From a virus: a stretch of 49,363 nt of DNA. Positions 8,853 to 27,232 of this stretch are shown one piece after another. The DNA lies in the IMG/VR virus record IMGVR_UViG_3300037465_000531. One strand, 5' to 3'. Below the pieces are notes generated by a model. The model was not told the origin of the DNA, made no database searches, and saw nothing but the letters and a program-made list of their open reading frames with translations. Positions within the stretch are counted from its first letter, which is position 1. Each line of letters begins with the position of its first letter. Position numbers and translations under genes: made by a program.

Positions 8853-8858
8853 AGACTC

Positions 8859-9173: not shown

Positions 9174-9177
9174 AACC

Positions 9178-9552: not shown

Positions 9553-9555
9553 CTC

Positions 9556-10290: not shown

Positions 10291-10292
10291 CC

Positions 10293-11797: not shown

Positions 11798-11798
11798 C

Positions 11799-13092: not shown

Positions 13093-13104
13093 AGGGTTTC
13101 AGGC

Positions 13105-13558: not shown

Positions 13559-13560
13559 TC

Positions 13561-13902: not shown

Positions 13903-14375
13903 CTAAAGTCAGGATGGGAGCGTACCCGGAGGATCCGTACTACGATCCGAACCGGCCGTCGTGGCTGCCTTACTGGATCGACACTCCAACGGAATCCTAC
14001 CGGAAGTACAAGTACTATCTTTACGAGCTTCCAGCCACTGCGGACAAGCCGTACCCGGATCCGAATCCGCCTCCGGCTCCGTCGAGCCCGTCCAGCTTGG
14101 ATCTGGAGCATCAGCTGAGGACCGGGGACGTCGGGTCGTTCACCCCTGCCGACCAACTGAATCAGGATCGGTCTGCGTGGAACCAGTGGCGGCAGACCGC
14201 GATCCCCGAGACTCCGCTGGAAGCGCTGCGGAGGCAGGAAGAGGAAGAGAAAAAGCGGTCCGAGGAGGGCGGCCTGCCTCTCTGGGCGTGGCTGCTGATC
14301 ATCGGCGGCGGAGCTCTGGCGCTGGTCGTGGCGCTGAAGCCCAACATGCCTAGCGTAAGTTTCGGTTCGAGGTGA
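13890..14375 (+). CDS. Pro/Tyr-rich tail-anchored membrane protein
   Basis: C-terminal GGLPLWAWLLIIGGGALALVVALKPNMPSVSFGSR. Confidence 0.7.
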   Translation: MGLVAKVRMGAYPEDPYYDPNRPSWLPYWIDTPTESYRKYKYYLYELPATADKPYPDPNPPPAPSSPSSLDLEHQLRTGDVGSFTPADQLNQDRSAWNQWRQTAIPETPLEALRRQEEEEKKRSEEGGLPLWAWLLIIGGGALALVVALKPNMPSVSFGSR

Positions 14376-14379
14376 AACT

Positions 14380-14904
14380 ATGCCGTTCATCAACGTACAT
14401 CCCGCGCCGGGCCTAGGGGAGCTGACTCCGGGCTGGTTCATCGTGCCCAACAATCCGTTCCAGCTGCGACAGCCCGTGGCACGCACCACAGGCGTCGGCG
14501 AACTGGTCGCGGCGCACTGGACGCTGCCGCAGAATCCGCTGGCCAATCAACTGGCCACCATCGGCCTGCCCCCGGGGCAGAGTTCCCAGAAGGCGGTCAT
14601 ACAGGGGCTCGGTGCAATCGATCTCGGTTCGGAGTTCTCCTCGTGGGCGAATCCGGGCGAGTGGACGTTCAGCCAGTGGGCTCTGGTGATCGGCGTTGGC
14701 GCTCTGTTCCTTCTCACCATGCGGAAGGACCGCGCCGGTTACAAGGCCGCCAAGCTGCAAGCGAAAGCGGACTACTACCGCGCGTTGCAGGATGCGAGGT
14801 CGAAGCACAAGACTCTGGGCGGAAGAGCCGTCGACTACGCGAGGGAGCGGCGGGCGGCGGCTGCCGCTGCGGCTGCGAGGGCGGCTGTGGTTGCGGAGGG
14901 CTGA
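14380..14904 (+). CDS. Membrane protein with single TM followed by a basic helical tail
   Basis: WTFSQWALVIGVGALFLLTMRKDRAGYKAAKLQAKADYYRAL... Confidence 0.7.
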   Translation: MPFINVHPAPGLGELTPGWFIVPNNPFQLRQPVARTTGVGELVAAHWTLPQNPLANQLATIGLPPGQSSQKAVIQGLGAIDLGSEFSSWANPGEWTFSQWALVIGVGALFLLTMRKDRAGYKAAKLQAKADYYRALQDARSKHKTLGGRAVDYARERRAAAAAAAARAAVVAEG

Positions 14905-15487: not shown

Positions 15488-16710
15488 TGGCGATCAACCT
15501 GAAGACTGCTGGCGGAGACTCGGCGGTCTGGACTGCTCGCGGGGGCAGCCGCCCGTTGGACAGCGGGGACGTCGCTCATCTGGATTTCGAGGCGGCGGTC
15601 GAGCTGCTGCGGATGCTGGGGTTCCGTGTGCGGAATCCGAGGAAGAAGGGCGGCGGGGAAGAAGGAGGAGCCCAGAAATGGGATGACATCTCCAGCGCTA
15701 AGGTGGAGCAGCTGATCAACTCGTCGGACCTTCAGGAGCGGTTCAAAGCGATCCGGGGAGCGCTTGTGGCCGCCGGGATGGCGAAGTCGAACAGGGAAGT
15801 ATCTTCCATCGTGCTGTGGTCGCCGCGCCGTCTGGCCAACGTGAGCATCAACAGCGGCAACTCGAAAACCGGGCCGACGATGTGCACCAACGTGTCTCAG
15901 GCAAGCTGCCCGGATGGGAGGAACAACGCGAGCGGATTCCGGTGCCCGCTGTACGACTCCGGCTGCTACGCCGAGTGGGGCACGCAATCCTTCGCTCACA
16001 CCAAGCACCTGAACGCGGCTTCCGGCATCAGCAGCAAGGCGACCGGCAAGGACCCGTCTAAGAGCCGCTACACGCCGGAGGACGTGGCCGAGGATGAAGC
16101 CGCCGTGCTTCGCCTCGCCCACCCGTTCTGGCAGCTGCTGCGGCTGAACAACGGCGTGCGCTTGCACGTCGTCGGCGACTGCGTCACTCCGTCCGCTGCG
16201 CGGACCGTGGGCGCTGCGGCCAAGCTCTTCGCCGAGGGACGGTTGACCGGCTCCGGTGTAAGGGAAGGCGGCGCGGCGGACGCGAAAAACGTCTGGAACT
16301 ACACGCATGGCTGGCGCGACGTGCCGCGCTCGGCGTGGCCGTCCGACATCAGCGTGCTGGCAAGCTGCGACACGGTGGACGATCTGGAAGAAGCGCACCG
16401 GCGCGGCTACGGGTCGTGCGTCGTCGTCCCGGAGTACCTGCAGAAGAAAGTCGGCGAGCAGGTTGTCCACTTGGGCAAGGCGATGATGACGGACAACGGG
16501 TTCCGGCTCATTCCCTGCCCGCACGAGGTGGCGGCGAAGAACGAGAAGAACGAGCGCGTCTGGTGCCTTGAGTGCAAGCTGTGCATGAGGGACGACTTCC
16601 TCCACCGCACCAAGAGCGTCATCGCCTTTGCCGCGCACGGAACCAAAAAGGCGCAGCAGACGGCGGCGCAGTTGATCAGCATCGAGGACATGAAAGGAGC
16701 GGCTGACTGA
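15487..16710 (+). CDS. Cys-rich hypothetical protein (407 aa)
   Basis: AAAGGAGG upstream, TGATG junction. NSGNSKTGPTMCTNVSQASCPDGRNNASGFRCPLYDSGCYAEWG and CPHEV...VWCLECKLC clusters suggest metal binding. I recall a similar Cys pattern in a phage family (GP88-like), unverified. Confidence 0.7.
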   Translation: MAINLKTAGGDSAVWTARGGSRPLDSGDVAHLDFEAAVELLRMLGFRVRNPRKKGGGEEGGAQKWDDISSAKVEQLINSSDLQERFKAIRGALVAAGMAKSNREVSSIVLWSPRRLANVSINSGNSKTGPTMCTNVSQASCPDGRNNASGFRCPLYDSGCYAEWGTQSFAHTKHLNAASGISSKATGKDPSKSRYTPEDVAEDEAAVLRLAHPFWQLLRLNNGVRLHVVGDCVTPSAARTVGAAAKLFAEGRLTGSGVREGGAADAKNVWNYTHGWRDVPRSAWPSDISVLASCDTVDDLEEAHRRGYGSCVVVPEYLQKKVGEQVVHLGKAMMTDNGFRLIPCPHEVAAKNEKNERVWCLECKLCMRDDFLHRTKSVIAFAAHGTKKAQQTAAQLISIEDMKGAAD

Positions 16711-18080
16711 TGGGCAAGCTGGAAAACTTTTACCGTTCCCTCGGCGTTCCCACTGTGAAGAACCCCTCCAGCAGCGAGGGCCGGGAGCTCGACCGCAAGG
16801 TGCGGGCGATCATGAACTATATCGACCGCCACGGCAAGGGTTACTTTGAATCCTTGTCGGACATCAACGCGCTGCTCGACCGCACCGCATCAGCCGCCGG
16901 TCTCAGCATGGTGGACTACGTCAACACCGCCGTTCCGTACGACCGGACGGTGAGCCTTCTGCTGGCGACGTCGGATCCCAACGTGTTCGTCCATGTGTCG
17001 ATCTACCGCATGCCGAGCGGGCGCTACGAGCTGGTGGCCTACCCCACCCGGGACTCGCTGCGGAAGCGCGGTCTGCAGGGCAAGAGAAGAAACCCTGCGG
17101 GCGACATGGAGGATGCTCTGGCCAACTACATCGCCCACAACGTCTACTGGAAGCTGCAGGAGGAGGCTGAACAGAGCGCGGGGATGAAGCCGGAGCACCG
17201 GGTGCCGATCCGCAGCGGGGTGGTGTTCGTGGCGAAGGTGGAGGCCTACGAGCCCGGACTCGGTCTGGCTCTTTCTGTCTGGACGGAGCGGGAAGAGGGC
17301 GTTCCGGAAAGCGAGGTACACCATCTGACGTGGAGGCAGTTCAGGACCCGGTTTGTCGATTCCTCCACTCTGGAGCCTCTGGTCGACGCACTGCACTATG
17401 CACTCCATCACGGGACTCTTAGCGGGTACCCCGGGTCCGGAGCGGAGGGGGAAGAGCCCGCACCTGTGCGGCAGAACCCTTCGATCCGTCTGGAGCGGAA
17501 CCCCGAGGGCGGGGGCGAGGAGCAGGAGCCCGTGGAGGAGTCCTACTCGGCTGGCGTGGAAGAGGTGCCGGAGCTGGAGGACAGCTACGAGGAAGCCGAG
17601 AAGGTATATGAAACCTTCCACGGCAGGGACAGCGACGAGGAGGTCGTCGTCGAGGAGGCGTTCGCGGTCAGGGACAATCTGGCCGCGCTCGGCATCCTGC
17701 AAGAGCTGTCTCTGACATCGCCCGCGAAGGTGAAGTTCAAGGTCGCCTTCGAGGACGACCAGCCGCTGTTGTGCTCCAGCGTCGATTCTCTGCAGCTCTA
17801 TATCATCGGCGGGGACCAGTCCATCGACGACGATACGCTGCTTGAGATCCTCGACGGGGACCAAGAGGCGGCCAACAAGGACAAGGTGCTGCTCGGCGTT
17901 CTGGACACGCTGGTGTACCAGACCGAGAAGGACTTCGACAATTTCGAAACCATCGACTACGAGCACGAGCTCGGAGAGGACGGCGGCTTCCAGCCCGCCG
18001 TCGTCTACGACCGGGTGAACAGACAGCTTGAGCTCGTCGGTGGGTCGTACAAGATCAAGCGGGAGGGAATCGTCAACTGA
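16710..18080 (+). CDS. Hypothetical protein (456 aa) with acidic central linker
   Basis: TGATG junction. KRRNPAG, VRQNPSIRLERNPEGGGEE motifs. C-terminal domain ...YETFHGRDSDEE...LYIIGGDQ...YEHELGEDGGFQPAVVYD...LVGGSYKIKREGIV. Confidence 0.75.
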   Translation: MGKLENFYRSLGVPTVKNPSSSEGRELDRKVRAIMNYIDRHGKGYFESLSDINALLDRTASAAGLSMVDYVNTAVPYDRTVSLLLATSDPNVFVHVSIYRMPSGRYELVAYPTRDSLRKRGLQGKRRNPAGDMEDALANYIAHNVYWKLQEEAEQSAGMKPEHRVPIRSGVVFVAKVEAYEPGLGLALSVWTEREEGVPESEVHHLTWRQFRTRFVDSSTLEPLVDALHYALHHGTLSGYPGSGAEGEEPAPVRQNPSIRLERNPEGGGEEQEPVEESYSAGVEEVPELEDSYEEAEKVYETFHGRDSDEEVVVEEAFAVRDNLAALGILQELSLTSPAKVKFKVAFEDDQPLLCSSVDSLQLYIIGGDQSIDDDTLLEILDGDQEAANKDKVLLGVLDTLVYQTEKDFDNFETIDYEHELGEDGGFQPAVVYDRVNRQLELVGGSYKIKREGIVN

Positions 18081-18138: not shown

Positions 18139-18888
18139 ATGGCTGTGGTGAAAGTGGTGCGGCGAGTGGCGAATCCGCGCAGGAGAGCTCGCCGCAGGCT
18201 GAATCCGATCCGGCGGCGGAAAACGATCCGACGCCGCAATCCCGCGCTCGTGCTCACGCTCGGCGCAGTGAATCCCAAACGCAAAAGGAGAAAGAACCCC
18301 ATGGCTCGTATCAGTCGTCGCCGCCGGAATCCCCGGCGCAAGATGCTGTCCCTGTTCTCGGTGCCGGTGCGCCGCCGCCGGAATTCCCGTCGTCGCCGCC
18401 GGAACCCCGCTCTGGCTGTCTACCGCCGCCGCTACAGCCGCCGCCGCCGCAATCCGATGTTCGGCAGCGTGAAAGGCGCTGCTGTGCTCGGCGGCCTGAC
18501 CGGCGTCGCCGCCACCCGGCTGGTTTCCAAGATCATCCCGCCCGGCATCCTCGGCTTCGCGGGCCAGTTCGCCCCGCTGCTGAGCGACGGCATCAGCGCG
18601 ATGCTGGTGAGCTGGGCCGCCGAGAAGATGGGCGGCAATGGCGAAACGGCGCGGGACTTCAAGTCCGGCGTGCCCTTCGGCGCTCTGATGCTGGTCGGTT
18701 CGACGGCCATCAGCACCTTCGTTCCCGGTCTGCGGCAGTACGGCTTCGGCATCGGCGCTCTGGTGCCGGGCCAGTTCCCGATCCCGCAGAACCCGATCCG
18801 TCCCCTCGCTCTTCCGGCTCCCGCGCCGGACGCCAAGACCCGGGTCAACACCAGCGGTCTGAGCCGCGCGTTCGGCACCGCGTTCTAG
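18139..18888 (+). CDS. Protamine-like Arg-rich (RRNP)n repeat protein fused to a Gly-rich hydrophobic membrane domain
   Basis: AGAAAGGAGAAACCGA-ATG. About 8 R-rich blocks ending in NP in the first ~115 aa. After that: VLGGLTGVAATRLV, ILGFAGQFAPLL, GISAMLVSWAA, FGALMLVGSTAISTFVPGL. Confidence 0.8.
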   Translation: MAVVKVVRRVANPRRRARRRLNPIRRRKTIRRRNPALVLTLGAVNPKRKRRKNPMARISRRRRNPRRKMLSLFSVPVRRRRNSRRRRRNPALAVYRRRYSRRRRNPMFGSVKGAAVLGGLTGVAATRLVSKIIPPGILGFAGQFAPLLSDGISAMLVSWAAEKMGGNGETARDFKSGVPFGALMLVGSTAISTFVPGLRQYGFGIGALVPGQFPIPQNPIRPLALPAPAPDAKTRVNTSGLSRAFGTAF

Positions 18889-18980: not shown

Positions 18981-19592
18981 ATGGCGAATGAACAGATCAT
19001 CCTCGACGCATTCCAGTCGCAGGTCTACGTCGAGAACCGGATGGACGTGCAGCACACCCCGCTGTACGACACCGTTTCTTGGAGCGCCGGTGATTCGGTG
19101 ACCGAGCTCACCGGGCAGTGGTTCACCAACGTGGGCCCGAGCTCCAGCAAGACGAAGGCCAAGACCAACATGACCCAGTCGCGGCGTCTGCCCGCGCCGG
19201 AGGCCTTCAGCGTGTTCGGCATCCGGGTCTACTGGAAGCCGAACGTCCTGCTGGCGGACCTCATCAGCGTGCTGGACAACTTCGCGCTCGAGTTCTACCT
19301 CGGGCAGAAGTCGTACAACCTCGGCCCGCTGTGGTACTACGCCGCCGGTGCTGGCATCGACGGCGTGGCTGCCACCACGGCCACCTCGACCACGATCACG
19401 TCGTGGCTCAACGGCGCTCCGCACCGCGAGTCGATGCACAAGCTGGCGCTGCCCATCGTCATCGAGAACCAGATGACGTTCTGGGCGCAGCTGGTCGGCA
19501 CCTCGACCACGCTGACCGCCAGTGGCAGCGGCGGCACCGGCCTGACCCTCACGGTCCTGCTCGACGGCTTCTACGCTCGCGGCGTGCAGTGA
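18981..19592 (+). CDS. Candidate abundant capsid protein, beta-rich (203 aa)
   Basis: The gene is insulated by ~90-nt and ~80-nt hairpin-containing spacers and has a strong AAGGAG. The sequence has alternating hydrophobic beta-like runs (FSVFGIRVYW, FALEFYLG, LALPIVIENQMTFWAQLVG, LTLTVLLDGFYARG). Confidence 0.55.
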   Translation: MANEQIILDAFQSQVYVENRMDVQHTPLYDTVSWSAGDSVTELTGQWFTNVGPSSSKTKAKTNMTQSRRLPAPEAFSVFGIRVYWKPNVLLADLISVLDNFALEFYLGQKSYNLGPLWYYAAGAGIDGVAATTATSTTITSWLNGAPHRESMHKLALPIVIENQMTFWAQLVGTSTTLTASGSGGTGLTLTVLLDGFYARGVQ

Positions 19593-19608
19593 TCGCTGCT
19601 CCCGATGG

Positions 19609-19643
19609 CATGGGAGGGGGGCTTCTCAAAGCCCTCCTCCATG
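19609..19643 (+). terminator. Imperfect GC-rich hairpin after gene 18981
   Basis: catgggaggggggctt-ctca-aagccctcctccatg. Confidence 0.35.
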
Positions 19644-19673
19644 CTGCAAACTTGAGGAGAGGAGAAAGAGTCC

Positions 19674-20102
19674 ATGCGATACAACCCCTACGCTCCACCG
19701 GCCATCCGGGGGCTCGGACAGACAGAGGACAAGGCCTACATCGACATCCCACGGTTCCACCGCATCGAGGTGTCGATGTCGGCGAGCGAATTCATCCGCG
19801 ATCGGGCGAGCGAGTTCAGCGACGAGGGGGACTTCATCCTCCGCGCCATCAGCGTGGCGTCGTTCACCGGCGCGTTCAGCGTGCAATTCACCGACGCCAA
19901 CGGCTACGCGATGTCGAACACGCTGATCAACCACTACGCCTTCCTCGGGGCGAGCAACAGCCCGGTGCCGTTCGTGATCTTCCCGGAAGTGGTGTTCCCC
20001 AAGAGCAGCAAGATCAGCTTGAACATCCTCAACCTGACGACGTCGGCCAACACCGTGATCTTCCTGTTGCACGGAGTGATGCGGGCGCAGGCGCTCAGGT
20101 AA
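19674..20102 (+). CDS. Small beta-rich protein, one copy of the recurrent ~130-aa unit (single-jelly-roll-like; penton candidate)
   Basis: DFILRAISV..FTDANGY..PFVIFPEVVFPKSSKISLNILNLT..VIFLLHGVMR parallels both halves of gene 20115. Confidence 0.5.
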   Translation: MRYNPYAPPAIRGLGQTEDKAYIDIPRFHRIEVSMSASEFIRDRASEFSDEGDFILRAISVASFTGAFSVQFTDANGYAMSNTLINHYAFLGASNSPVPFVIFPEVVFPKSSKISLNILNLTTSANTVIFLLHGVMRAQALR

Positions 20103-20114
20103 GGAGGGCGGGCG

Positions 20115-20939
20115 ATGGATTACTTCGACCTGCCGTTTTACTACGTCTACGACGCCTCGGGGCTGACCAACGGCCAGAGCTACGACGGGCTGGCGATTGC
20201 GGTTGACCGCGACGCGGAATTCCGGCTGCGGGCCGTGCTCGGCGTCAATCTGGTCTGCTCCGGCGGGATGTACTTCTACGACGGCGACGGGAAGCCCGCG
20301 ACGCCGCGCGGATTCATCCATCCGGGCGACCAGCCGCTGCTGGTGCAGCCGGAGATCGTCTATCCGCCAGCCGGTCAGATCCGGTTCTCTCTGTCGAACG
20401 TGCAGCGTGCGGCGCACAACTACACCGGCACGCAGAAGGCATATTACAGCCGCCTGTGCTTCTACGGCGTGAAGCGGTTCACCGGCGAACGCGCCCGGTC
20501 GATGCTCGATCAGCAGAAAGCCTCGGCGGCCTTCCGCCACTTCCCGTACCAGAATCGGAACGACCTGACCGTGAGCATCTACAGCCACGTCAGCCCGGGC
20601 TTCACGCAGGAGGAAGCGCCGCGCCAGTTCCGGGTCGAGGTGGACAACTACGGCTACGACTGGTTCGCTCTCGCGGGCGAGCCGGATCTGCTCAACAACA
20701 AGCTGCTGCTGATGCCCTACGACTCCAGTAGCACACGGCAGCTGGCGAGCGACTATGTGCCGTCGGCATTCCTCGCGTGGCGTCCGTACCGGCCATGGGC
20801 GTGCTTCCCGTCGGTTCCCCTGTTCTTCCCGGCCAACGGCATTCTGCGGCTGGACTGGATGAGCCGGTACACGGACGCCGACACGCTGCCTGCAACCGTG
20901 CCGATCACATTGATCGGGGCACGGAGGATCGGATGCTGA
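20115..20939 (+). CDS. Internally duplicated beta-rich protein (274 aa), two copies of the unit (double-jelly-roll-like capsid candidate)
   Basis: Half 1: AEFRLRAVLGV..FYDGDGK..LLVQPEIVYPPAGQIRFSLSNV..LCFYGVKR. Half 2: YDWFALAGE..MPYDSSS..PLFFPANGILRLDWMS..ITLIGARR. Confidence 0.5.
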   Translation: MDYFDLPFYYVYDASGLTNGQSYDGLAIAVDRDAEFRLRAVLGVNLVCSGGMYFYDGDGKPATPRGFIHPGDQPLLVQPEIVYPPAGQIRFSLSNVQRAAHNYTGTQKAYYSRLCFYGVKRFTGERARSMLDQQKASAAFRHFPYQNRNDLTVSIYSHVSPGFTQEEAPRQFRVEVDNYGYDWFALAGEPDLLNNKLLLMPYDSSSTRQLASDYVPSAFLAWRPYRPWACFPSVPLFFPANGILRLDWMSRYTDADTLPATVPITLIGARRIGC

Positions 20940-20952
20940 GGATGGAGGGCGT

Positions 20953-21480
20953 ATGCTGAGCGCAATTGCGGATGGATTCACGCTGCACCCGGGCATGATC
21001 GAGATTCCGGGCAGGTACGAGCCCATGGCCATCGCGCAGCTGGAGCTGCTGCGGCGATCGAAGACCTATCGTCCGTATTGGGTGAGAGTGCCGGAAGGAA
21101 GCCAGACGGTGGGGGCCTTCGGCAGCTTCCAGTATCAGGTGCATCTGAAACCGGGCAGCTGGCTCTACGGGCTGCAGCTGACCGTGCTTGACGTTCTGGA
21201 CCAGCCGGTGCTGTCGATGAACAGCGCCGTGCTGAGCATCCAGATCACGGAGACCTACAGCGGGGCGCAGTTGTTCAGCGAGCACAGCCGCACGCAGCCG
21301 CTGTGCAATCAGTGCTGGTTCGGCGACACATCCCGGCTGCAGTTTTTCCCGCTCGCAGAGCCGAAAGTGATCATCGATCCCGGAGATCTGGACATCGATG
21401 TCTGCAACCTGACCGATCTGGCCCGCAAGTGGGAGCTGATTCTGTTCACGGCGGAACCGTACGAGCTGGTGGAGGCCTGA
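20953..21480 (+). CDS. Beta-rich protein distantly related to the same unit
   Basis: LYGLQLTVLDV..SIQITETYSGAQLFSE..FFPLAEPKVIIDPGDLDIDVCNLT..ELILFTAEP. Confidence 0.45.
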   Translation: MLSAIADGFTLHPGMIEIPGRYEPMAIAQLELLRRSKTYRPYWVRVPEGSQTVGAFGSFQYQVHLKPGSWLYGLQLTVLDVLDQPVLSMNSAVLSIQITETYSGAQLFSEHSRTQPLCNQCWFGDTSRLQFFPLAEPKVIIDPGDLDIDVCNLTDLARKWELILFTAEPYELVEA

Positions 21481-21481
21481 C

Positions 21482-21841
21482 ATGGACGCGTATTTGACGA
21501 GAGCGGACATCCCCCTGCTGAAGCGGTCGGAGAAAAGCGCGGAGAAGCTCGTCGCAGCAGGCCTGCCGGTGCTGCAGCTTCGGAACATGCTTGCCAACCT
21601 GACGGCTTCTTTGGGCGTCTACAACGTCTACCGCACCTCCAGAAACCGGCTGGAGATCGTAGACGCCAAGGCCGAGTCCATCCGACACGCCAAGCTGGCG
21701 AAGAACGACTACACGGACCTTGCCAAGCGGATCGAGTCAGGCATCCCGGATCCGAAGGCCCGGAGGAAGATCCGCAAGGTTCTGGACGATGTCCACTTCG
21801 GAGTCATCCACCGCATGAGGGTGAGAAAGGACGGGCTCTGA
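21482..21841 (+). CDS. Hypothetical helical basic protein
   Basis: ORF track; tight spacing (starts 2 nt after the upstream stop, ends in a TGATG junction). Confidence 0.65.
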   Translation: MDAYLTRADIPLLKRSEKSAEKLVAAGLPVLQLRNMLANLTASLGVYNVYRTSRNRLEIVDAKAESIRHAKLAKNDYTDLAKRIESGIPDPKARRKIRKVLDDVHFGVIHRMRVRKDGL

Positions 21842-22374
21842 TGCTGCAAGGACAGTATGTTCCTCGAGCTACGGACGCGGACCGGGAGTTGTGGACAATC
21901 ACGTTGGAAACGCCCCGTTGGAAGAGCGACCGTCTGTTCGGGTCCAGCAAGTACAAGAGCGACCAGCCGCCGTGGCTGGTGATGCCGCCGAATGCGGTTC
22001 CGTTCCAGAAGTTCAGCTCCATCGCGCTGCCTGCGGCCAACGGTCAGGACAATACGGTGGTGCAGTTCACCGTGCCGCAGGGCTTCGATGGCGTGATCAG
22101 CTCTCTGGTGCAGCAGTACACGGGCACAGGGTTCGTCGAGGGCAGCGGCGATTTGAAGTGGCGCATCCGCATCGGCGACCGCTGGGCCGAGGACATGGGC
22201 AACATGATCACCCAGCTTGGCAGCCTCCAGTCGCCGTACCAGATCTACCGCAGCGGGGTGCGGCTGCGGGAGTCGGACACGGTCACCTACATCGTCAACC
22301 ATGCGACGGGGAGCGGTCTGACCGGCGGGCGCATCGTCTGCGGCTGTTTCGGGTGGTACTATCCCACCGCGTGA
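21841..22374 (+). CDS. Virion-associated candidate; paralogue of the C-terminal domain of gene 24842
   Basis: FTVPQGFDGV...YTGTGFVEGSGDLKWRIRIGD...RIVCGCFGWYYP vs FEVPEGYYGY...YTGTGYVEGSTDIYWRIKISD...RIIGGIRGWLYEP. Confidence 0.6.
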   Translation: MLQGQYVPRATDADRELWTITLETPRWKSDRLFGSSKYKSDQPPWLVMPPNAVPFQKFSSIALPAANGQDNTVVQFTVPQGFDGVISSLVQQYTGTGFVEGSGDLKWRIRIGDRWAEDMGNMITQLGSLQSPYQIYRSGVRLRESDTVTYIVNHATGSGLTGGRIVCGCFGWYYPTA

Positions 22375-22382
22375 GGTGACCG

Positions 22383-22787
22383 ATGGCGAACGGCCTGTAC
22401 CGCAAGGCGTGCGAGAGCTACAGCTTCCCCAACATCGTCGGGCACACCATCAAAGTGAGCCTGATTCGCACGGCTGGTGGCTACACGCCGAACCTGAACA
22501 CGGACCAGTTCTACTCGATCATTCCCGGCGCGGCGGTGATTTTCGACGGACCGGCGCTGACCGGGAAGAGTTTCACCGGCGGGGAGTTCAAGGCCGACGA
22601 CGTCAACTTCGGCGTGGTGCCCGCGAGTCCGGCGGCGGATGGCATGGTCATCTGGCGCGACAGCGGAAACCCGGCCACCAGCGAGCTGCTGGTGTGGTAT
22701 GACACGGTGCCCGGTCTGCCGGTGACGCCGGACGGATTCAACTACATCATTATCCAGTGGCCGACGACGTTCATTTTCCGGCTGTGA
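22383..22787 (+). CDS. Small beta-rich structural-module protein
   Basis: IKVSLIRTAGGYTPNLNTDQFYS...FTGGEFKADDVNFGVV...MVIWRDSGNPATSELLVWYD...IIIQWPTTFIFRL. Confidence 0.6.
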   Translation: MANGLYRKACESYSFPNIVGHTIKVSLIRTAGGYTPNLNTDQFYSIIPGAAVIFDGPALTGKSFTGGEFKADDVNFGVVPASPAADGMVIWRDSGNPATSELLVWYDTVPGLPVTPDGFNYIIIQWPTTFIFRL

Positions 22788-22794
22788 GGACGAG

Positions 22795-23805
22795 ATGGCG
22801 CACACGGTTCTGTGGATCGACGGCTTCGACGAGATCGCGAGCACGGATCAAAAATACTCGTCCACAGAGAGAAACCAGACGTGGGCCACGGATCCGACGC
22901 CGGCCTACGGCTACGGGAAGGCGATGCGAGTGCAGAACGGATGGGTCGCGCCGATTCTGACCGGGTCCCCGTACACAGTCCTGTTCGCTGCGTTCGACCT
23001 CCTGTTGTACACCACGTTCGACGTGAGTCAGCTCCAGTTGGAATTCTGGGACGATCTCGCAGGACAGGCGCAGTGCTATTTGAAGACTTCGCTCAACCAA
23101 TCCGCTTTGAAATACGATCTGGTGCTGTATCGAGGTGCCACCGCGCTGTATACATGGACTGCTGTTCTCGACCACGCCATTCACAACCATGTCAGCATCC
23201 GCTGCGAGGTCAACAGCAGCACCGGCAGCGTGACTTTGGCGGTAAACGGAGTGGACAAGGGGACTTTCACCGGCAACACGCAGAACACGACCAATACCCG
23301 GATCGACCGGTTCCGCATCAACATGACGGTGAACAACTCAAGAGTCGGAGTAGACAACTGGGTGATTGCCTCGGGGCTGATCACCGATCCACTGTTGCCT
23401 GTGACCCGGGTCTACGGAGCTAACATGCCCAACGCTAACATCGCCGTGGCGTGGACTCCGAGCACCGGGAGCAACTACCAGACGGTGGACGAGATCCCTC
23501 CGAGCGATACAGACTACAACAGCACGTCGACTTCCGGGGCGCAGGACGTGTTCTCCCACGCGGCGCTGTCCGGCGTCGGGGATCAGGTTCTGGCGGTGCG
23601 GGCCAACGCCCGGGCATGGAGAGACTCGACCGACACGATCCAGAATCTGGTGCGGGTTAGCGGCACGGACTACTATGGCTCGACGAAGACGCCGTCGTCG
23701 AGTTATCTGAGCTACGGCCATGTGTGGGCGCAGAATCCGGCGACGAGCGCGGCGTGGACGCCGAGCGACGCGATTGCCGCGCAATTCGGATACAGGAGGG
23801 TGTAA
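22795..23805 (+). CDS. Lectin/LamG-like two-domain protein, tandem paralogue 1 (spike/receptor-binding candidate)
   Basis: MAHTVLWIDGFDEI...VDNWVIASGLITDPLLP...DEIPPSDTDYNS...AQNPATSAAWTPSDAIAAQFGYR aligns along its full length with gene 23806. Confidence 0.6.
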   Translation: MAHTVLWIDGFDEIASTDQKYSSTERNQTWATDPTPAYGYGKAMRVQNGWVAPILTGSPYTVLFAAFDLLLYTTFDVSQLQLEFWDDLAGQAQCYLKTSLNQSALKYDLVLYRGATALYTWTAVLDHAIHNHVSIRCEVNSSTGSVTLAVNGVDKGTFTGNTQNTTNTRIDRFRINMTVNNSRVGVDNWVIASGLITDPLLPVTRVYGANMPNANIAVAWTPSTGSNYQTVDEIPPSDTDYNSTSTSGAQDVFSHAALSGVGDQVLAVRANARAWRDSTDTIQNLVRVSGTDYYGSTKTPSSSYLSYGHVWAQNPATSAAWTPSDAIAAQFGYRRV

Positions 23806-24840
23806 ATGGCGTACACGATTCTCTGGATGGACGGCTTCGACGAGATTGGAAACGCGAACCAGAAGTATACCGAAGGCGGCGAAATCAACTACGCGCAGGC
23901 TACGAACACGACAGTAGTCCCGTTTTCCTATGGCAGGTCGCTGAAGTTCAACAACTCCAACGAGGTGGTTCTCCAGAAGGTGATCTCAGGCGCACCGTAC
24001 ACGACGTTCTTCCTCGGGTTTCATTTCTACCTCAACTCCACGGACACCACGGAGAGGAACTTCATCCAGTTCTTGGACGCGCAGAACAACGTGGTGCAGA
24101 TCGAGCTTCGGCGCATCTGGGACAACGTTCTGCTGAAGCACGTCCTGCGTCTTTACCGCGGATCTACATTGTTGGCAGCTACCACGGACGGGATCCAGCA
24201 GGCGACTTGGACATGGATCAGCGTGAAGTACGTCTGTCATCCAAGCACCGGAACCGTCGAGGTCAAGATGAACAACTCCACGGTGCTGACCTTCACCGGA
24301 AACACCCAGAACGGAGCTGTGACTCAGGTGCATCGCCCTGTGATCCGCACCGGGTTGGCAATCACCGACTTCTATGTTGACAACCTCGTGGTGGCCACCG
24401 GACTGACAACGGACGATCTGTTGCCGGAATGCAGGATCTTCGGTGCCGTGGTGCCGACGTCGAACGACAGCATCGCGTTCACTCCGAACGCAGGCACGAA
24501 CTGGTCGAACGTGAACGAGATTCCGCCGAACGACGACACGAGCTACAACTACTCGAACACGGTTGGCGCAACGGACGTGTTCGTCTGCGCGCCGCCGACG
24601 CTGACCGGGGTGGTCTACGCCGTCAAAGTCAACTTCCGGGCGAGGAAGGACGACGCCGGAGTGCGGGAGCTGGCATCGGTCATCAAGCCCGGAACAACTG
24701 TCCATCAGGGGTCGGCCATCGAGATCACGTCGAACTACTTCAATCGCGGATACATGTGGCAGACGAACCCGGACACCGGCGTGGGCTGGAACCCCGGAGA
24801 TCTGACCAGTCTGAAATTCGGCTACAGGATCGTGACCTGA
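23806..24840 (+). CDS. Lectin/LamG-like two-domain protein, tandem paralogue 2
   Basis: MAYTILWMDGFDEI...VDNLVVATGLTTDDLLP...NEIPPNDDTSYNYS...QTNPDTGVGWNPGDLTSLKFGYR. Starts immediately after the paralogue 1 stop. Confidence 0.6.
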   Translation: MAYTILWMDGFDEIGNANQKYTEGGEINYAQATNTTVVPFSYGRSLKFNNSNEVVLQKVISGAPYTTFFLGFHFYLNSTDTTERNFIQFLDAQNNVVQIELRRIWDNVLLKHVLRLYRGSTLLAATTDGIQQATWTWISVKYVCHPSTGTVEVKMNNSTVLTFTGNTQNGAVTQVHRPVIRTGLAITDFYVDNLVVATGLTTDDLLPECRIFGAVVPTSNDSIAFTPNAGTNWSNVNEIPPNDDTSYNYSNTVGATDVFVCAPPTLTGVVYAVKVNFRARKDDAGVRELASVIKPGTTVHQGSAIEITSNYFNRGYMWQTNPDTGVGWNPGDLTSLKFGYRIVT

Positions 24841-24841
24841 C

Positions 24842-25759
24842 ATGGCGGTTCGAGTCAGCCAGACCAACAAAGAGATTGCGGGCACGTCGAGCACGCCTGC
24901 TTCCCGAGTCACGCAGGCGCAGGCCGAGATCCTGACCGGGCAGGCCAATACCAACGCCCGGGTGACGCAGCTCAGCACGGAGATCATCAGCACGCAGGCT
25001 GGGGCCAACGTGTGGGCGACACAGTCCACGGTTGAGATCCTGCTGTGGCTGAACAGCTGGATGATCTACGATGTGCCGAGTCTGGACGAGTCAAGTGTGC
25101 CCGCGCCGACCGTGGTGATGAGTCCGCCGCCGCCGCCGCCGGTTTTCTACTTCTACCCGTCCGGCGGCGGCAAAGTGCTCAAGTACAAGCCGACGACATC
25201 GGAGGCGGACACCCGGCTGCTGGAGCGGCAACGGTTGTGGGAGGCCTACGCGCGGGCGGCGGTGGAGGGCAGCGGGATGTCCGGTCTCAGGGTCTCTCTG
25301 GGTCGGATCACGAACGGGCTGCGATGGCTGGAGCCGGGCCGCCAGCGGCGGCGGTGGATGCGGCAGGGATCCATCGTCACGCCCGCACCGGCGGACGGGG
25401 ACGTGGCAGTGTGCGAGTTCGAGGTGCCGGAGGGCTACTACGGTTACCTGACCGGCTTCTGGTGGGCCTACACCGGGACCGGCTATGTGGAGGGCAGCAC
25501 GGACATCTACTGGCGTATCAAAATCAGCGACTGGTATCCGGAGGGCTACGGCGCGGTGCGGTTTCAGATGGGGACGCCAACGGACCCGCTGACGGTCACG
25601 GGGATGCTGCCTCTGCGCTCCCGGGAGACGGTGAAGCTGATCGTGTTCGTCAAGAACGACAGCGGGTTCATTCAGGTGGGCACCAGCAGGATCATCGGAG
25701 GGATCAGGGGATGGCTTTATGAACCGGAGGGCGGAACGGGAGGAGGCGTAAGGTGGTAA
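24842..25759 (+). CDS. Fibre-like protein: N-terminal V(T/S)Q...EI(L/I) repeats, Pro-rich hinge, C-terminal domain paralogous to gene 21841
   Basis: RVSQTNKEIAG / RVTQAQAEILTG / RVTQLSTEIIST / WATQSTVEILL repeats. MSPPPPPPVFYFYP hinge. Confidence 0.6.
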   Translation: MAVRVSQTNKEIAGTSSTPASRVTQAQAEILTGQANTNARVTQLSTEIISTQAGANVWATQSTVEILLWLNSWMIYDVPSLDESSVPAPTVVMSPPPPPPVFYFYPSGGGKVLKYKPTTSEADTRLLERQRLWEAYARAAVEGSGMSGLRVSLGRITNGLRWLEPGRQRRRWMRQGSIVTPAPADGDVAVCEFEVPEGYYGYLTGFWWAYTGTGYVEGSTDIYWRIKISDWYPEGYGAVRFQMGTPTDPLTVTGMLPLRSRETVKLIVFVKNDSGFIQVGTSRIIGGIRGWLYEPEGGTGGGVRW

Positions 25760-26046
25760 AGGACAACATGGACATCAAAATCAACGGTGATGAAGGCCCC
25801 TCCATCCGCTTTCGCATCGGACTGATGGCAATCGTGCAGGTAATCGCCACGTTCATTACGTTTGGCGTGGCGCTCCGAGTCCTCTCAGCGGACGTGGACC
25901 GGCTGAAGACGCAGAACGAGACCCTGCAGAGGGAAATGGTCATCATCCGGGAGACGCAAGCGAAGATCCTCGCAGTGATCGAGGATCTCCGGGACGACAT
26001 CCGCTACCAGCGGGAGCGGATCGACCGGAAGGTGGAGGGGCGGTGA
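25753..26046 (+). CDS. Type-II membrane protein with coiled coil (spanin-like); ATG 25768 is an alternative start
   Basis: IGLMAIVQVIATFITFGVAL, then DVDRLKTQNETLQREMVIIRETQAKILAVIEDLRDDIRYQRERI. Confidence 0.55.
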   Translation: MVKDNMDIKINGDEGPSIRFRIGLMAIVQVIATFITFGVALRVLSADVDRLKTQNETLQREMVIIRETQAKILAVIEDLRDDIRYQRERIDRKVEGR

Positions 26047-26047
26047 C

Positions 26048-26272
26048 ATGGTTTGGTACTGGCTGTTCGTAGTCGTGATGGCGGCCAGTTCGGCGCGGGA
26101 CGGGAAATGGGCTCTGGCTTCGGCGTTCCTGATCCTCGGGTCCCTGTTGTTCTGGCTCAGCAAGAAAGGAGAGGTTTCCGATGGGAAAGGTGAAGAAGAT
26201 TCTGATCATCGTTTTCAAGATTCTGCAGATCTTGGGTATTGGCGCGGGCACGGCGGCGCTCACGAACCCTGA
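26048..26272 (+). CDS. Small two-TM protein (holin-like); 3' end overlaps the next gene
   Basis: MVWYWLFVVVMAASS...WALASAFLILGSLLFWLSKKG. The 92-nt overlap with 26181 makes the true end uncertain. Confidence 0.45.
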   Translation: MVWYWLFVVVMAASSARDGKWALASAFLILGSLLFWLSKKGEVSDGKGEEDSDHRFQDSADLGYWRGHGGAHEP

Positions 26273-26396
26273 GGCGCTGTCAGGCATTCTTACCCCGGAG
26301 CAGATCGGGACTCTGGCGGCAGGCGCGGCGGTCGTGAACGCGTTCCTGCCGTCGGTGCTGGGGAAGAAAACCGGGTCGGAGCAGGGCAAAAGTTGA
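26181..26396 (+). CDS. Small membrane protein (holin-like)
   Basis: AAAGGAGAGG upstream. KILIIVFKILQILGIGAGTAAL and LAAGAAVVNAFLPSVLG. Confidence 0.6.
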   Translation: MGKVKKILIIVFKILQILGIGAGTAALTNPEALSGILTPEQIGTLAAGAAVVNAFLPSVLGKKTGSEQGKS

Positions 26397-26614
26397 CATA
26401 AATTATGTAACATCGATGAGACAGAAACAGGAATATATACTTCGTATATATTCCTCTGTTTCTGTCTCAGGTGTAATGTCACATTCAAGGTGCTCCTATT
26501 ACTTCGCGGTATTATAATAATATGACCCCTTATTACGCGCGCGCGCGATTTGGTATTTGTATTTGAGGTTTGGAGATTGTCATTGCCGCCGAGACCGGCG
26601 ACCGGAGGTGAGCC
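26397..26614. promoter_or_regulatory. AT-rich intergenic island with nested palindromes (candidate terminator/promoter/origin region)
   Basis: In a GC-rich genome this stretch contains the 26418-26468 hairpin, aatgtcacatt (26475-26485), tattataata (26510-26519), (CG)6 (26536-26547) and a TATAAT hexamer inside ggtattataataat. Confidence 0.6.
26418..26468. terminator. Long near-perfect hairpin (11 bp + 2-nt bulge + 12 bp, 3-nt loop)
   Basis: gagacagaaacaggaatatatac-ttc-gtatatattcctctgtttctgtctc, paired base by base. 22 nt after the last gene of the long rightward operon. No U-tract. Confidence 0.45.
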
Positions 26615-27232
26615 ATGGCGACCTACAAGGATCTGGCTGACGCCATCATCCAGCAGGAGGGAGCGTTCAACCCGCGCAGCGTCAACATGCGGCTGGTTAC
26701 CCAGCACGGGCTCTGGAACGTCGGCCATCTGGAATGGCGCAGCCAGCGCGGCGCTGTGCCGGTCGACATCAACGGGCGGCTGTGGGCCGGGTGGCCCAGC
26801 TACGAGGACTCCTACGACGGACTCCTGCGCCAGCTCTGGCTCTACGTTGGCAGAGGCCTGACTCTGGAGCAGATGATCTACAAGTACGCTCCCCCGCAGG
26901 AAAACTACACTGAAAAGTACATCGCCTTCGTCAGCTCGCGCACCGGCATCCCCCGCGACGGCAGGCTAGCAGACTACCTGCCGGAGGAAACCTACTTCCA
27001 GTACGCGGGGCGCAAGGCCGACCAGACGCCAACGCCGGACAGACCGTCGCCTCCCGCAGAATCAGCCGTGCCGGAGCAGGTATCCGGGTGGCCCCTCCCT
27101 CTCCTCACCGACGCCGGGGACGAATCCGCCGAGCCCGGCGTCGAAACCGCAGAACTCGGCGGATCAGCCGGAGCCTTCATCCTCCTCGCCGCAGTCGGAG
27201 CAGCAGCGGCAATCCTCCTCAAACGAGGGTGA
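26615..27232 (+). CDS. SLT/GH23-like lytic transglycosylase with C-terminal membrane anchor
   Basis: LADAIIQQEGAFNPRSVN...TQHGLWNVG resembles the SLT motif (..ES-gfnP.a.s..GA.GLMQ). GGAGGTG RBS. C-terminus GGSAGAFILLAAVGAAAAILLKRG. Confidence 0.5.
   Translation: MATYKDLADAIIQQEGAFNPRSVNMRLVTQHGLWNVGHLEWRSQRGAVPVDINGRLWAGWPSYEDSYDGLLRQLWLYVGRGLTLEQMIYKYAPPQENYTEKYIAFVSSRTGIPRDGRLADYLPEETYFQYAGRKADQTPTPDRPSPPAESAVPEQVSGWPLPLLTDAGDESAEPGVETAELGGSAGAFILLAAVGAAAAILLKRG

Follow-up and report, generated by a model that had tools for sequence, protein, structure and literature searches.

A putative virion-shell module of jelly-roll proteins in the complete genome of an uncultured, probably tailless bacterial virus

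Introduction

What kind of particle is built by a virus whose genome has no recognizable terminase, portal or HK97 capsid gene? The window analysed here (the whole stretch of DNA, 49,363 nucleotides) raises this question at positions 18981–22787, where a preliminary description had read a capsid module and proposed either a new group of tailless, membrane-containing viruses or hallmark proteins too diverged to be recognized by eye. On balance, we favor the view that the virion shell is encoded here, and that the genome represents a large, widespread and uncultured family of dsDNA bacterial viruses that are tailless and probably have an internal membrane. Jelly-roll proteins, and not an HK97-fold capsid protein, a portal and a terminase, appear to make up the particle in this family.

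Results

A complete genome with a conserved seven-gene core

The window is a complete replicon, as indicated by its terminal direct repeat: bases 1–127 are identical to bases 49237–49363, so that the genome, whether circular or terminally redundant, measures 49,236 bp. All of the open reading frames previously noted in the capsid region are present and are coding-type in composition (GC3 0.83–0.93).

1..127, unstranded: terminal direct repeat, 127 nt

Related loci (~15) lie on contigs of 47–76 kb; the related contigs cluster at 47–58 kb and carry a viral call in IMG/VR, and one relative sits on a 358-kb Bryobacteraceae MAG contig. Seven core genes keep their order in all ~15 loci, encoding the g16710 domain, an Arg-rich membrane protein, the 203-, 142-, 274- and 175-aa proteins, and the g21841 domain. 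The genome also encodes a ParB, a small tyrosine recombinase and a replication module typical of tailed phages; no conjugation or secretion genes were found in it. A comparison with 50,697 phage records gave no homologues for the 203- and 274-aa proteins, nor for g16710 and g6132.

A 203-aa single jelly-roll protein is the best candidate for the shell

18981..19592, + strand: 203-aa single jelly-roll protein (g18981), candidate principal capsid (shell) protein, from AF2, Foldseek and conservation

Structures were modelled (AlphaFold, AF2) for two proteins, the 203-aa g18981 and the 274-aa g20115. The g18981 model (pLDDT 79.8) is an 8–10-strand sandwich with an N-terminal helix. Its best Foldseek match in the PDB is chain 6oj0_A, the capsid protein of SPV1 (E 7e-3, prob 0.99), and below it rank SPMV, FHV, C1q/TNF, HCIV-1 and SH1; receptor-binding heads of the C1q/TNF type thus also match the model. 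For both modelled proteins the Foldseek E-values are modest and the TM-scores low (0.2–0.4).

Searches of Pfam, PHROG, PDB sequences, INPHARED and PLSDB gave no match to g18981. Homologues form 377 clusters at E<=1e-3, and the best 120 of the 377 are 58–100% identical. At about 60% identity, retained even where neighbouring genes drop to 25–35%, g18981 is the module's most conserved protein, and the GC3 of its gene (0.93) is the maximum for the genome. The preliminary description listed g18981 for modelling and passed it over both as a jelly roll and as the most conserved module protein; the model is a jelly roll, and among the module's proteins g18981 is our leading candidate for the principal shell component. 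Stem-loops occur on both flanks of the gene.

A beta-rich unit occurs once and twice in tandem

19674..20102, + strand: 142-aa protein g19674 with one copy of the beta-rich unit, single jelly roll by homology
20115..20480, + strand: N-terminal jelly-roll unit (residues 1–122) of g20115, 274 aa (AF2 strands within residues 3–123)
20520..20939, + strand: C-terminal jelly-roll unit of g20115, residues 136–274 (AF2 strands 140–273)
20953..21480, + strand: 175-aa conserved protein g20953, possible strongly diverged fourth copy of the unit (weak hhalign match)

The preliminary description saw one ~130-aa unit in g19674, in both halves of g20115 and in g20953. As single sequences, g19674 aligned to the N-terminal half of g20115 with a Smith-Waterman z of 9.2 and to the C-terminal half with a z of 2.4; the two halves of g20115 gave no significance against each other. 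We built unit profiles from 14–15 related loci and compared them by hhalign, using block-shuffled nulls as controls. The 142-aa family matched the N-terminal half of the 274-aa family at E 3e-19 (99.2%; score 113.6 vs a null maximum of 35.0) and the C-terminal half at E 1.3e-14 (98.3%; 89.0 vs 26.8), and the two halves matched each other at E 4.8e-12 (97.5%; 73.7 vs 24.9). Because these scores lie far above the shuffled nulls, with E-values of 3e-19 to 4.8e-12, we take the homology predicted by the profiles, with one copy in the 142-aa protein and two in tandem in the 274-aa protein, to be real. The same profiles are only suggestive of a fourth copy in g20953, which matched the 142-aa family weakly (E 1.7e-4, probability 49%) and the merged unit with a score of 25.1 (null maximum 15.5). 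The g20953 gene is kept in every related locus that reaches far enough. The g19674 gene has a GC3 of 0.92 and lies directly 3' of the 203-aa gene in every related locus.

The g20115 model (m4d32afe48d06; pLDDT 91.4, pTM 0.89) predicts with high confidence two jelly-roll-type beta sandwiches, joined by a helix at residues 124–134. Its best Foldseek match in the PDB is DUF2961 (4kq7, E 5.9e-5); PHM, PRD1 P3 (E 2.5e-4), PBCV-1 Vp54, SGIV MCP and Melbournevirus MCP also match, the overall range being 6e-5 to 1e-3. These neighbors cover three of the four double-jelly-roll fold families described in PMC8812541, in keeping with the jelly-roll reading of the preliminary description. The TM-scores to double-jelly-roll capsid proteins are low (0.2–0.27); given these and the modest E-values, the model does not establish that the two domains are oriented toward each other as in a double jelly roll. 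The MCP/penton roles that the preliminary description suggested from size for the 274- and 142-aa proteins are candidate assignments. A BFVD search placed tail-fibre, hydrolase and galactose-binding tandem beta-sandwich proteins on top, with E-values similar to those from the PDB.

The g20115 family comprises 497 representatives at 50% identity, and some forms are enlarged by insertions of roughly 100 or 400 aa. In relatives whose 203-aa protein keeps about 60% identity, the 142-, 274- and 175-aa proteins fall to 23–39%; by this comparison they diverge much faster, as surface or host-interaction proteins do. The Shine-Dalgarno sequence of g20115 (-12.6 kcal/mol) is the strongest among the 31 genes examined.

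Hallmark genes of tailed phages and packaging ATPases

No plausible gene of the complete replicon matched a terminase, portal, HK97 capsid, tube, sheath, tape-measure or FtsK/HerA ATPase family in Pfam or in the 38,880 families of PHROG. The reported lack of terminase, portal, HK97 capsid and packaging ATPase genes is thus borne out at the HMM level. The count of four P-loop proteins likewise held: a six-frame Walker-A scan located XPD, Sak4 and MoxR in real genes, together with an incidental GPALTGKS in g22383, and Pfam detected SNF2; the scan gave no spare P-loop protein beyond these four. Setting g6132 (661 aa, helical) aside, the functionally unassigned ORFs of at least 400 aa lack conservation across the family (g10577, DUF7227) or show it only in a domain of ~165 aa (g16710), and are therefore incompatible with TerL, portal or HK97 capsid protein. 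It had also been argued that a packaging ATPase accompanies all known jelly-roll dsDNA viruses. This is incorrect, since SPV1 and FLiP are jelly-roll viruses without one (PMC8812541), and they provide a precedent for its absence here.

Membrane proteins and a lysis-like cassette

8184..14904, + strand: block of small proteins, 8–9 with a single, mostly C-terminal hydrophobic helix (hydropathy scan)
16710..18080, + strand: 456-aa g16710, candidate virion or assembly factor (C-terminal ~165 aa conserved)
18139..18888, + strand: Arg-rich candidate DNA-condensing membrane protein g18139 (sequence, composition)
25753..27232, + strand: candidate lysis or entry cassette (TM/coiled-coil protein, 2-TM holin-like protein, lysozyme-like protein with a C-terminal TM helix)

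The helix-bearing proteins of the upstream block gave no PHROG matches and are candidate virion membrane proteins, which fits the membrane-containing virion proposed earlier; g8184 has a weak match to a transglutaminase core. Both g16710 and g18139 are universal in the related loci. In g16710, which has no Pfam, PHROG, PDB or INPHARED match, family-wide conservation is limited to the C-terminal domain, which follows an (R/K)NP motif. The N-terminal region of g18139 is Arg-rich (58 K+R, 5 D+E) with five [RK]NP motifs. Its C-terminal region, glycine-rich, moderately hydrophobic and below the hydropathy threshold used, is homologous to the membrane protein g14380, and we read it as membrane-associated. 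In the same hydropathy scan the 203-, 142- and 274-aa proteins had no signal peptide or TM segment. Within the cassette, g26615 matches the phrog_873 endolysin (E 9e-7).

Appendage-like genes related to siphophage tail tips

21482..21841, + strand: 119-aa basic accessory protein (closest relatives only)
21841..22374, + strand: 177-aa protein g21841, candidate anchor for variable spikes (conserved ~140–170-aa domain)
22383..22787, + strand: 134-aa homologue (g22383) of the Bxb1 gp31 'tail wing arm' (phrog_644; Pfam Gp80 in relatives)
22795..24840, + strand: tandem paralogues g22795 and g23806, 336 and 344 aa (phrog_2448, E 1.5e-13 and 1.4e-22)
24842..25759, + strand: 305-aa g24842, N-terminal repeats and a C-terminal g21841-type domain, candidate spike

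The 119-aa protein has only 5 matches, all close relatives, and no Pfam or PHROG family match. The g21841 domain, for which there was no PDB or PHROG match, is present in 2–3 copies in each genome and invariably forms the C-terminus of the paralogues of 305–693 aa; relative L019 has it joined to an N-terminal part resembling phrog_2448. g22383 matches mycobacteriophage Bxb1 gp31 (PDB 9d93_Ra, E 3.4e-9), the tail wing arm of that phage (PMC12646305), as well as phrog_644 (E 4.6e-22), and its homologue in relative L011 matches PF23140. The phrog_2448 homologues g22795 and g23806 are likely host-surface-binding appendage proteins; in Sphingomonas phage Kimi and TvV-S20 a member of this family is the next gene after the tape measure, and further members are found in phiCbK-like and Brevundimonas phages. 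Because siphophage tail tips contain homologues of genes 22383–24840, the earlier statement that there are no tail genes is not strictly true.

Discussion

The 142-, 274- and 175-aa proteins could instead be vertex spikes, decoration or carbohydrate-binding adhesins (CBM-like beta sandwiches), with the 203-aa jelly roll forming the shell by itself or together with other partners. Their lower identity, the 100–400-aa insertions in the 274-aa family, the BFVD neighbors of the 274-aa model, its TM of only about 0.2 to double-jelly-roll capsid proteins, and the glycosyltransferases inside the modules of two relatives (L015 and L019) all point that way. We nevertheless consider this reading unlikely, if a serious contender: the PDB neighbors of the 274-aa model are specifically double-jelly-roll families, with PRD1 P3 and NCLDV capsid proteins among them; all three genes are universal and keep strict synteny with the 203-aa gene; g20115 has the strongest ribosome-binding site of the 31 genes examined and g19674 a GC3 of 0.92; and a separate appendage-like gene set already lies at 22383–25759.

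That the virus is a tailed phage (Caudoviricetes) with hallmarks diverged beyond HMM recognition, its jelly rolls serving in the tail tip, baseplate or decoration, strikes us as very improbable. The siphophage tail-tip accessory homologues, the replication module and the unassigned g6132, g10577 and g16710 would suit such a phage, whereas a complete genome without a single terminase, portal or capsid match in Pfam or PHROG, the lack of a P-loop protein to spare, the poor conservation of the large ORFs other than g6132, the absence of homologues of the 203- and 274-aa proteins, g16710 and g6132 from the 50,697 phage records and the clustering of 8–9 small membrane proteins beside the structural genes would not. 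We give still less credence to a non-autonomous element, plasmid-like or a satellite, that has no capsid or borrows that of a helper and has jelly rolls as secreted or surface proteins. ParB, the recombinase, the packaging enzyme not found by Pfam, PHROG or Walker-A scan, and the relative on the MAG contig are compatible with one; against it stand the lack of conjugation or secretion genes and of further P-loop ATPases, the lysis-like cassette, the size and viral classification of the related contigs, the 203-, 142- and 274-aa proteins lacking signal peptides and TM segments, and a conserved structural-type operon whose jelly-roll folds are likest viral capsid proteins.

The genome thus looks like that of a new, abundant family of tailless, probably membrane-containing jelly-roll bacterial viruses, whose protein roles we infer as follows. 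The new group proposed in the preliminary description is upheld in part, by the jelly rolls, the hallmarks missing at the HMM level and the membrane-protein block, and is qualified by the siphophage tail-tip homologues. The 203-aa g18981 would be the principal, strongly constrained shell protein, and the 142-aa g19674 and its duplicated 274-aa paralogue g20115 would supply further capsomer or vertex components, as g20953 may also do. g18139 would probably condense the genome, which would then be enclosed together with a vesicle carrying the 8–9 small membrane proteins encoded upstream; by analogy with SPV1, a packaging ATPase probably does not drive the genome into the particle. The g21841 domain may anchor variable spikes, whose distal modules (g22383, g22795, g23806 and the N-terminus of g24842) would be exchanged with siphophage tail tips. 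The genes for g22795 and g23806 are 79% identical over their first 62 nt.

A complete genome and its gene content

Bases 1-127 of the 49,363-nt window (GC 61-68%) are an exact direct repeat of bases 49237-49363. This makes the window a complete genome (49,236 bp), either circular or terminally redundant, so absences from the replicon can be tested. Genes were called by third-position GC; the plus strand holds nearly all of them, and all ORFs named in the preliminary description exist (genes are designated here by start coordinate). Replication and recombination genes were assigned as follows:

ParB, small tyrosine recombinase, SNF2 helicase, XPD/DinG-like helicase: phage-like family matches
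UDG-plus-exonuclease protein, family A polymerase, MoxR-type AAA+ with VWA partner: phage-like family matches
Sak4/AAA_24, ERCC4 nuclease: phage-like family matches

No gene of the complete genome matched a terminase, portal or HK97 capsid family in Pfam or PHROGs, and whole-genome searches of the same collections detected no tube, sheath, tape measure or podovirus adaptor/nozzle. An FtsK/HerA packaging ATPase was absent from all genes by Pfam, PHROGs and a six-frame Walker-A scan. Among real genes the scan returned only XPD, Sak4, MoxR and an incidental match within the beta-rich g22383, leaving no P-loop protein unassigned (SNF2 was picked up by Pfam). As hidden packaging ATPases, Sak4 (AAA_24) is unlikely because of its recombination/replication context and MoxR because it adjoins a VWA-domain partner. 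The unassigned ORFs of at least 400 aa, g6132 apart, appear to be poor candidates for diverged hallmark proteins, because they are not universal among the family (g10577 and a DUF7227 protein) or have just one short conserved domain (g16710, limited to ~165 C-terminal residues; alignment A4). A homologue of g6132 was recovered from the closest relative only. Large ORFs in the structural modules of relatives gave no hallmark match, the sole find being a methyltransferase/GT2 fusion.

Megablast of 24 kb of the window against 50,697 phage records gave no match, and tblastn found no homologue of the 203-aa (g18981), 274-aa (g20115), g16710 or g6132 proteins in the same records; the 203-aa protein also had no match among PLSDB plasmids. 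Pfam and PHROG scans of the structural proteins gave nothing beyond phrog_644 and phrog_2448, member-by-member scans of alignments A1 and A3 (Pfam) and A5 (PHROGs) gave no supporting family, and PDB sequence and profile searches with the 203-aa, 274-aa, g16710, g21841-domain and DUF7227 proteins gave nothing meaningful. 'Serglycin' matches were spurious, arising from GS linkers that joined concatenated proteins. No tRNA genes were found in the window, and scans for sigma-70 promoters and terminators were at or below chance.

A conserved structural module with a duplicated unit

The core of the structural module has an identical order in every related locus that extends far enough:

g16710: 456-aa protein, conserved as a ~165-aa C-terminal domain
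g18139: Arg-rich protein
g18981: 203-aa protein
g19674: 142-aa protein
g20115: 274-aa protein
g20953: 175-aa protein
g21841: 177-aa protein of the g21841-domain family

The preliminary description had proposed a recurring ~130-aa beta-rich unit, present once in g19674, twice in tandem in g20115 and once more in g20953. Between single sequences, Smith-Waterman comparison of g19674 was significant with the N-half of g20115 (z = 9.2) and marginal with the C-half (z = 2.4); the two halves did not match each other significantly, nor was any g20953 comparison significant. We then used family profiles from ~15 related loci (IMG/VR, metagenome and MAG contigs). Iterated HMM searches merged the 142-aa and 274-aa families, and hhalign profile-profile scores lay far above the maxima of block-shuffled controls.

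Profile-profile comparison (hhalign) of the recurring units, with null maxima from block-shuffled controls
142 aa vs 274 N-half: E 3e-19; 99.2%; score 113.6; null maximum 35.0
142 aa vs 274 C-half: E 1.3e-14; 98.3%; score 89.0; null maximum 26.8
274 N-half vs C-half: E 4.8e-12; 97.5%; score 73.7; null maximum 24.9

The single copy and the tandem pair are thus real. The signal for g20953 is weak yet above the null (E 1.7e-4 with the 142-aa family; score 25.1 with the merged unit, null maximum 15.5), making it a possible fourth copy. At the sequence level we rejected the 203-aa protein as a fifth copy (hhalign E 0.17-0.41), and the g21841 and g22383 families showed no relation to the unit by hhalign.

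Predicted structures of the 274-aa and 203-aa proteins

Searched as a single sequence, the 274-aa protein had only five homologues; a profile reached 21, and an exhaustive profile search extended the family to 497 representatives (clustered at 50% identity), with E < 1e-30 for 260. The gene has the strongest Shine-Dalgarno sequence of 31 genes examined. The model, built with 21 diverse homologues (pLDDT 91.4, pTM 0.89), consists of two eight-stranded sandwiches with a connecting helix at residues 124-134. Its top PDB match is the DUF2961 protein 4kq7 (E 5.9e-5, prob 0.94), and its further neighbours include PHM (peptidylglycine hydroxylating monooxygenase), PRD1 P3 (2.5e-4), PR772, PBCV-1 Vp54 and the SGIV and Melbournevirus capsid proteins. 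These matches span three of the four double-jelly-roll fold families listed in PMC8812541, which, for a predicted model, argues for a double-jelly-roll fold rather than two arbitrary sandwiches. TM-scores to the PDB neighbours are only 0.2-0.27. Among predicted viral structures (BFVD), tail-fibre/hydrolase tandem-sandwich proteins rank top, followed by NCLDV capsid proteins, and SPV1 VP4 matches a single domain of the model (prob 1.00). For g20115, a putative double-jelly-roll arrangement is suggested by the two modelled sandwiches and their double-jelly-roll neighbours, and is tempered by the low TM-scores and the mixed BFVD matches. The 142-aa protein, because it is homologous to each half, would by inference also be a jelly roll.

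The 274-aa family also contains a 370-410-aa subclass and variants of 650-745 aa (P0188, P0194, P0223, P0254, P0280 and P0285), whose N- and C-terminal units match as separate stretches with ~400 residues between them. The extra length would come from large insertions, placed between the two jelly rolls or inside one of them and resembling capsomer towers or spikes.

The preliminary description listed g18981 among its coordinates and left it out of its argument; the 203-aa protein is now central. Its model shows one jelly roll plus a helix at the N-terminus (pLDDT 79.8, with a low-confidence stretch at residues ~121-160). The best match is the SPV1 capsid protein 6oj0_A (prob 0.99, E 7e-3, TM 0.37-0.41), and the next are satellite panicum mosaic virus, nodavirus and picornavirus capsid proteins, C1q/TNF domains, HCIV-1 and SH1. 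Homologues fall into 377 clusters, the best 120 of which are 58-100% identical and none of them named. In distant relatives the 203-aa protein keeps 49-66% identity, while the 142-, 274-, 175- and 177-aa proteins fall to 18-47%. No other gene of the genome reaches the GC3 of the 203-aa and 142-aa genes (0.93 and 0.92), and the 203-aa gene is bordered by stem-loops. We infer that the 203-aa protein is the principal shell protein.

In the close relatives L004 and L005 (IMG/VR contigs 3300035183_000834 and 3300028735_000001), the otherwise slow-evolving 203-aa protein is just 65-67% identical to that of the window. Since the neighbouring 142-, 274-, 175- and 177-aa proteins are 80-88% identical, this mosaicism suggests that recombination has swapped the putative main capsid gene, or else a variable loop within it (compare the low-confidence stretch of the model). 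A Lysinibacter MAG contig (L013, JBBAQX010000046.1) carries two 203-aa homologues ~10 kb apart (3472-4110 and 13329-14030), the second with just 27% identity to that of the window. The latter may be a second paralogue, or the contig may hold two adjacent elements.

Putative membrane, internal and spike proteins

The genes flanking the core include the following:

8184-14904, upstream: eight or nine small proteins, each with a single hydrophobic helix that is mostly C-terminal (hydropathy scan)
15457-16710: Cys-rich DUF7227 protein, adjoining the capsid module
g22383: 134-aa sequence homologue of the Bxb1 "tail wing arm" protein gp31
g22795 and g23806: tandem paralogues of the phrog_2448 family
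25753-27232, downstream: looks like a lysis or entry cassette
26429-26455: perfect 12-bp AT-rich inverted repeat between holin-like and lysozyme-like genes

The small proteins of 8184-14904 gave no PHROG match. The Arg-rich g18139 contains 58 K+R and 5 D+E, with repeated RRRNP motifs followed by glycine-rich hydrophobic segments that stayed below the hydropathy threshold. Its C-terminal region is homologous to the membrane protein g14380, and we read this region as probably membrane-associated.

Bxb1 gp31 is a tail-tip accessory protein whose homologue is absent from the related phage Hami1 (PMC12646305), and members of phrog_2448 lie directly 3' of the tape-measure gene in phages Kimi and TvV-S20. 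The statement that the window has no tail genes thus holds for the tail core and not for tail-tip accessory proteins, of which g22383, g22795 and g23806 are homologues. The g21841 domain occurs in two or three copies per genome, always C-terminal within 305-693-aa paralogues (including g24842), and one relative (L019) has it joined to an N-terminal part of phrog_2448 type. Because of this C-terminal recurrence and the L019 fusion, the sequences suggest that the domain may be a common anchor carrying variable distal modules.

The inverted repeat at 26429-26455 (AGGAATATATAC ttc GTATATATTCCT) is intergenic. It stands out against the 64% GC of the genome and may act as a terminator or operator. 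The motif [RK]NP occurs 16 times in the proteome, with 12 occurrences in g9178, g14906, g15457, g16710 and g18139 (9178-18888; ~0.45 expected); these five virion-module proteins are all encoded upstream of the capsid genes. In the g16710 family a near-N-terminal NP is invariant, and a second (R/K)NP immediately precedes the sole conserved domain. Such motifs may be sites of processing or signals that target internal proteins.

The DUF7227 protein is present in many, not all, relatives and in L017 is fused to a g14906/g16710-type domain (694-711 aa). Among cultured phages, it is most similar to genes annotated 'DNA methyltransferase' in phages of Tunturiibacter (Acidobacteriota), at 37.6% identity. 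In L019 a GT2 gene (12194-12880) sits between the 274- and 175-aa genes, and in L015 a 1004-aa methyltransferase+GT2 fusion (5557-8571) precedes the Arg-rich protein gene. Glycosyltransferase genes in these capsid modules hint at glycosylated virion proteins.

Comparison with known virus groups

Siphophage tail tips (Bxb1 gp31; phrog_2448 of Kimi, TvV-S20 and phiCbK) share sequence homologues with the window, but here no tape-measure, tube or terminator gene precedes g22383, g22795 and g23806. Judged from gene content, membership of the Caudoviricetes fails for lack of terminase, portal, HK97 capsid and tail core. The likeness to Bamfordvirae (Tectiviridae PRD1, Corticoviridae PM2, Autolykiviridae and FLiP) lies in a gene for a ~270-aa predicted two-jelly-roll protein adjoining one for a ~140-aa putative single-jelly-roll protein (the sizes of PM2 P2 and PRD1 P31), in PRD1 P3, PR772 and NCLDV capsid proteins among the top PDB matches of the 274-aa model, and in many small membrane proteins with no tail module. 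However, TM-scores between Bamfordvirae capsid proteins and this model are only about 0.2, the single and double units of the window are still recognisable as homologous by sequence, and its genome is ~three to five times the size of those of known prokaryotic double-jelly-roll viruses. Canonical membership fails on the absence of an FtsK/HerA-type packaging ATPase and on the extra, dominant and far more conserved 203-aa single jelly roll. The cellular DUF2961 family supplies the top PDB match of the 274-aa model (4kq7), and is itself a double-jelly-roll protein whose two domains are still structurally alike (PMC8812541). In contrast, the 274-aa protein is ~100 residues shorter and sits in a virion-type operon, and none of 22 members of its family matched Pfam DUF2961.

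Helvetiavirae (Sphaerolipoviridae, Simuloviridae and Matshushitaviridae: SH1, HCIV-1 and P23-77) have an internal membrane and vertex spikes. They have more than one single-jelly-roll capsid gene, adjacent to one another, for which the neighbouring 203-aa and 142-aa genes of the window would be the candidate counterparts, and HCIV-1 and SH1 capsid chains match the 203-aa model. Unlike the window, they have genomes of 16-31 kb; their proteins have no sequence similarity to those of the window, and we know of no fused double unit among them. Membership fails because the window has no packaging ATPase, which Helvetiavirae encode as a homologue of that of double-jelly-roll viruses (PMC8812541). 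Among Portogloboviridae, SPV1 provides the capsid protein that best matches the 203-aa model, although the match is weak (E 7e-3, TM about 0.4). The SPV1 genome is ~20 kb (49 kb here), and its virion contains an internal membrane together with a basic core protein that condenses the DNA. SPV1 has no packaging ATPase, which contradicts the earlier assertion that one accompanies all known jelly-roll dsDNA viruses; FLiP likewise has none (PMC8812541). The window shares the missing ATPase and has a basic candidate in g18139, with its putatively membrane-associated C-terminal region; by analogy, g18139 and the membrane-protein block would correspond to the SPV1 core protein and membrane. Membership of the Portogloboviridae fails, as SPV1 has an archaeal host, no sequence similarity to the window and no double-unit paralogue of its jelly-roll protein. 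SPV1 would be the closest functional analogue, with no relationship by sequence.

A possible virion architecture and its implications

By analogy, the virus would work most like an internal-membrane jelly-roll virus; the genes relevant to a membrane, eight or nine tail-anchored small proteins and g18139, are all encoded beside the capsid genes. The 203-aa protein would be the main building block of a jelly-roll shell, to which the 142/274 paralogues would add further capsomer or vertex components, perhaps along with the 175-aa protein. Inside the shell would lie a membrane vesicle with the small tail-anchored proteins, and condensation of the genome on g18139, the Arg-rich putative membrane protein, would replace pumping by a motor. 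Vertex spikes would be anchored via the g21841 domain and carry distal modules common to siphophage tail tips.

The observations of the preliminary description are mostly confirmed and its interpretation is partly supported, to be re-centred on the 203-aa protein. We consider it probable, with some reserve, that the window represents a new group (of family rank or higher) of tailless jelly-roll viruses, in which the duplication from a single to a double jelly roll can be detected by sequence; the roles of individual proteins are held more weakly than this overall reading. Our literature searches found no description of this virus family. More doubtful, and offered tentatively, is the wider proposal of a high-rank undescribed lineage of bacterial jelly-roll-capsid viruses that is abundant in metagenomes, shows tentative host links to Acidobacteriota, has the largest such genomes, is without a packaging ATPase and keeps a single gene beside its own double derivative. 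At 47-58 kb and more, its genomes would exceed those of all other known prokaryotic jelly-roll dsDNA viruses.

If true, these genomes would hold a living record of a double-jelly-roll virion protein arising by duplication within a virus genome, which bears on viral duplication versus capture of a cellular DUF2961-like protein as its origin. Single and double jelly rolls that can be aligned by sequence inside one operon are a rare case, and they would make the origin of double-jelly-roll capsids testable by sequence phylogenetics, beyond structure comparison. If the roles hold, this would be a large, widespread and unstudied bacterial virus family beyond the tailed phages (377 and 497 clusters for the 203-aa and 274-aa proteins), without a recognisable packaging motor and with genomes ~three times larger than those of known tailless membrane-containing phages. 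Host-recognition modules would then be exchanged between tailless viruses and siphophage tail tips.

Host and additional features of the genome

MAG matches included a 358-kb Bryobacteraceae contig (JAXLQN010000013.1), another Acidobacteriota MAG, and Lysinibacter and Saccharibacteria bins. With the similarity of the DUF7227 protein to Tunturiibacter phage genes, this makes Acidobacteriota plausible candidate hosts.

On the minus strand there is just one operon of any size (4803-8117). Its products are g6132, a helical Q/P-rich protein of 661 aa, two small proteins and a further two with N-terminal signal-peptide-like segments; the relative L020 has a 708-aa minus-strand ORF at the same position. 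Three tandem paralogous genes span the circular junction (47789-49167 and 39-581; blastp E 8e-27 to 6e-7) and share the C-terminal tail '...E(A/S)(L/I)W(K/R)T(I/L/V)K...(L/V)(A/L/S)EL(S/A)'. A duplicated 5' end is common to g44713 and g45126 (repeat D2, 75% over 69 nt).
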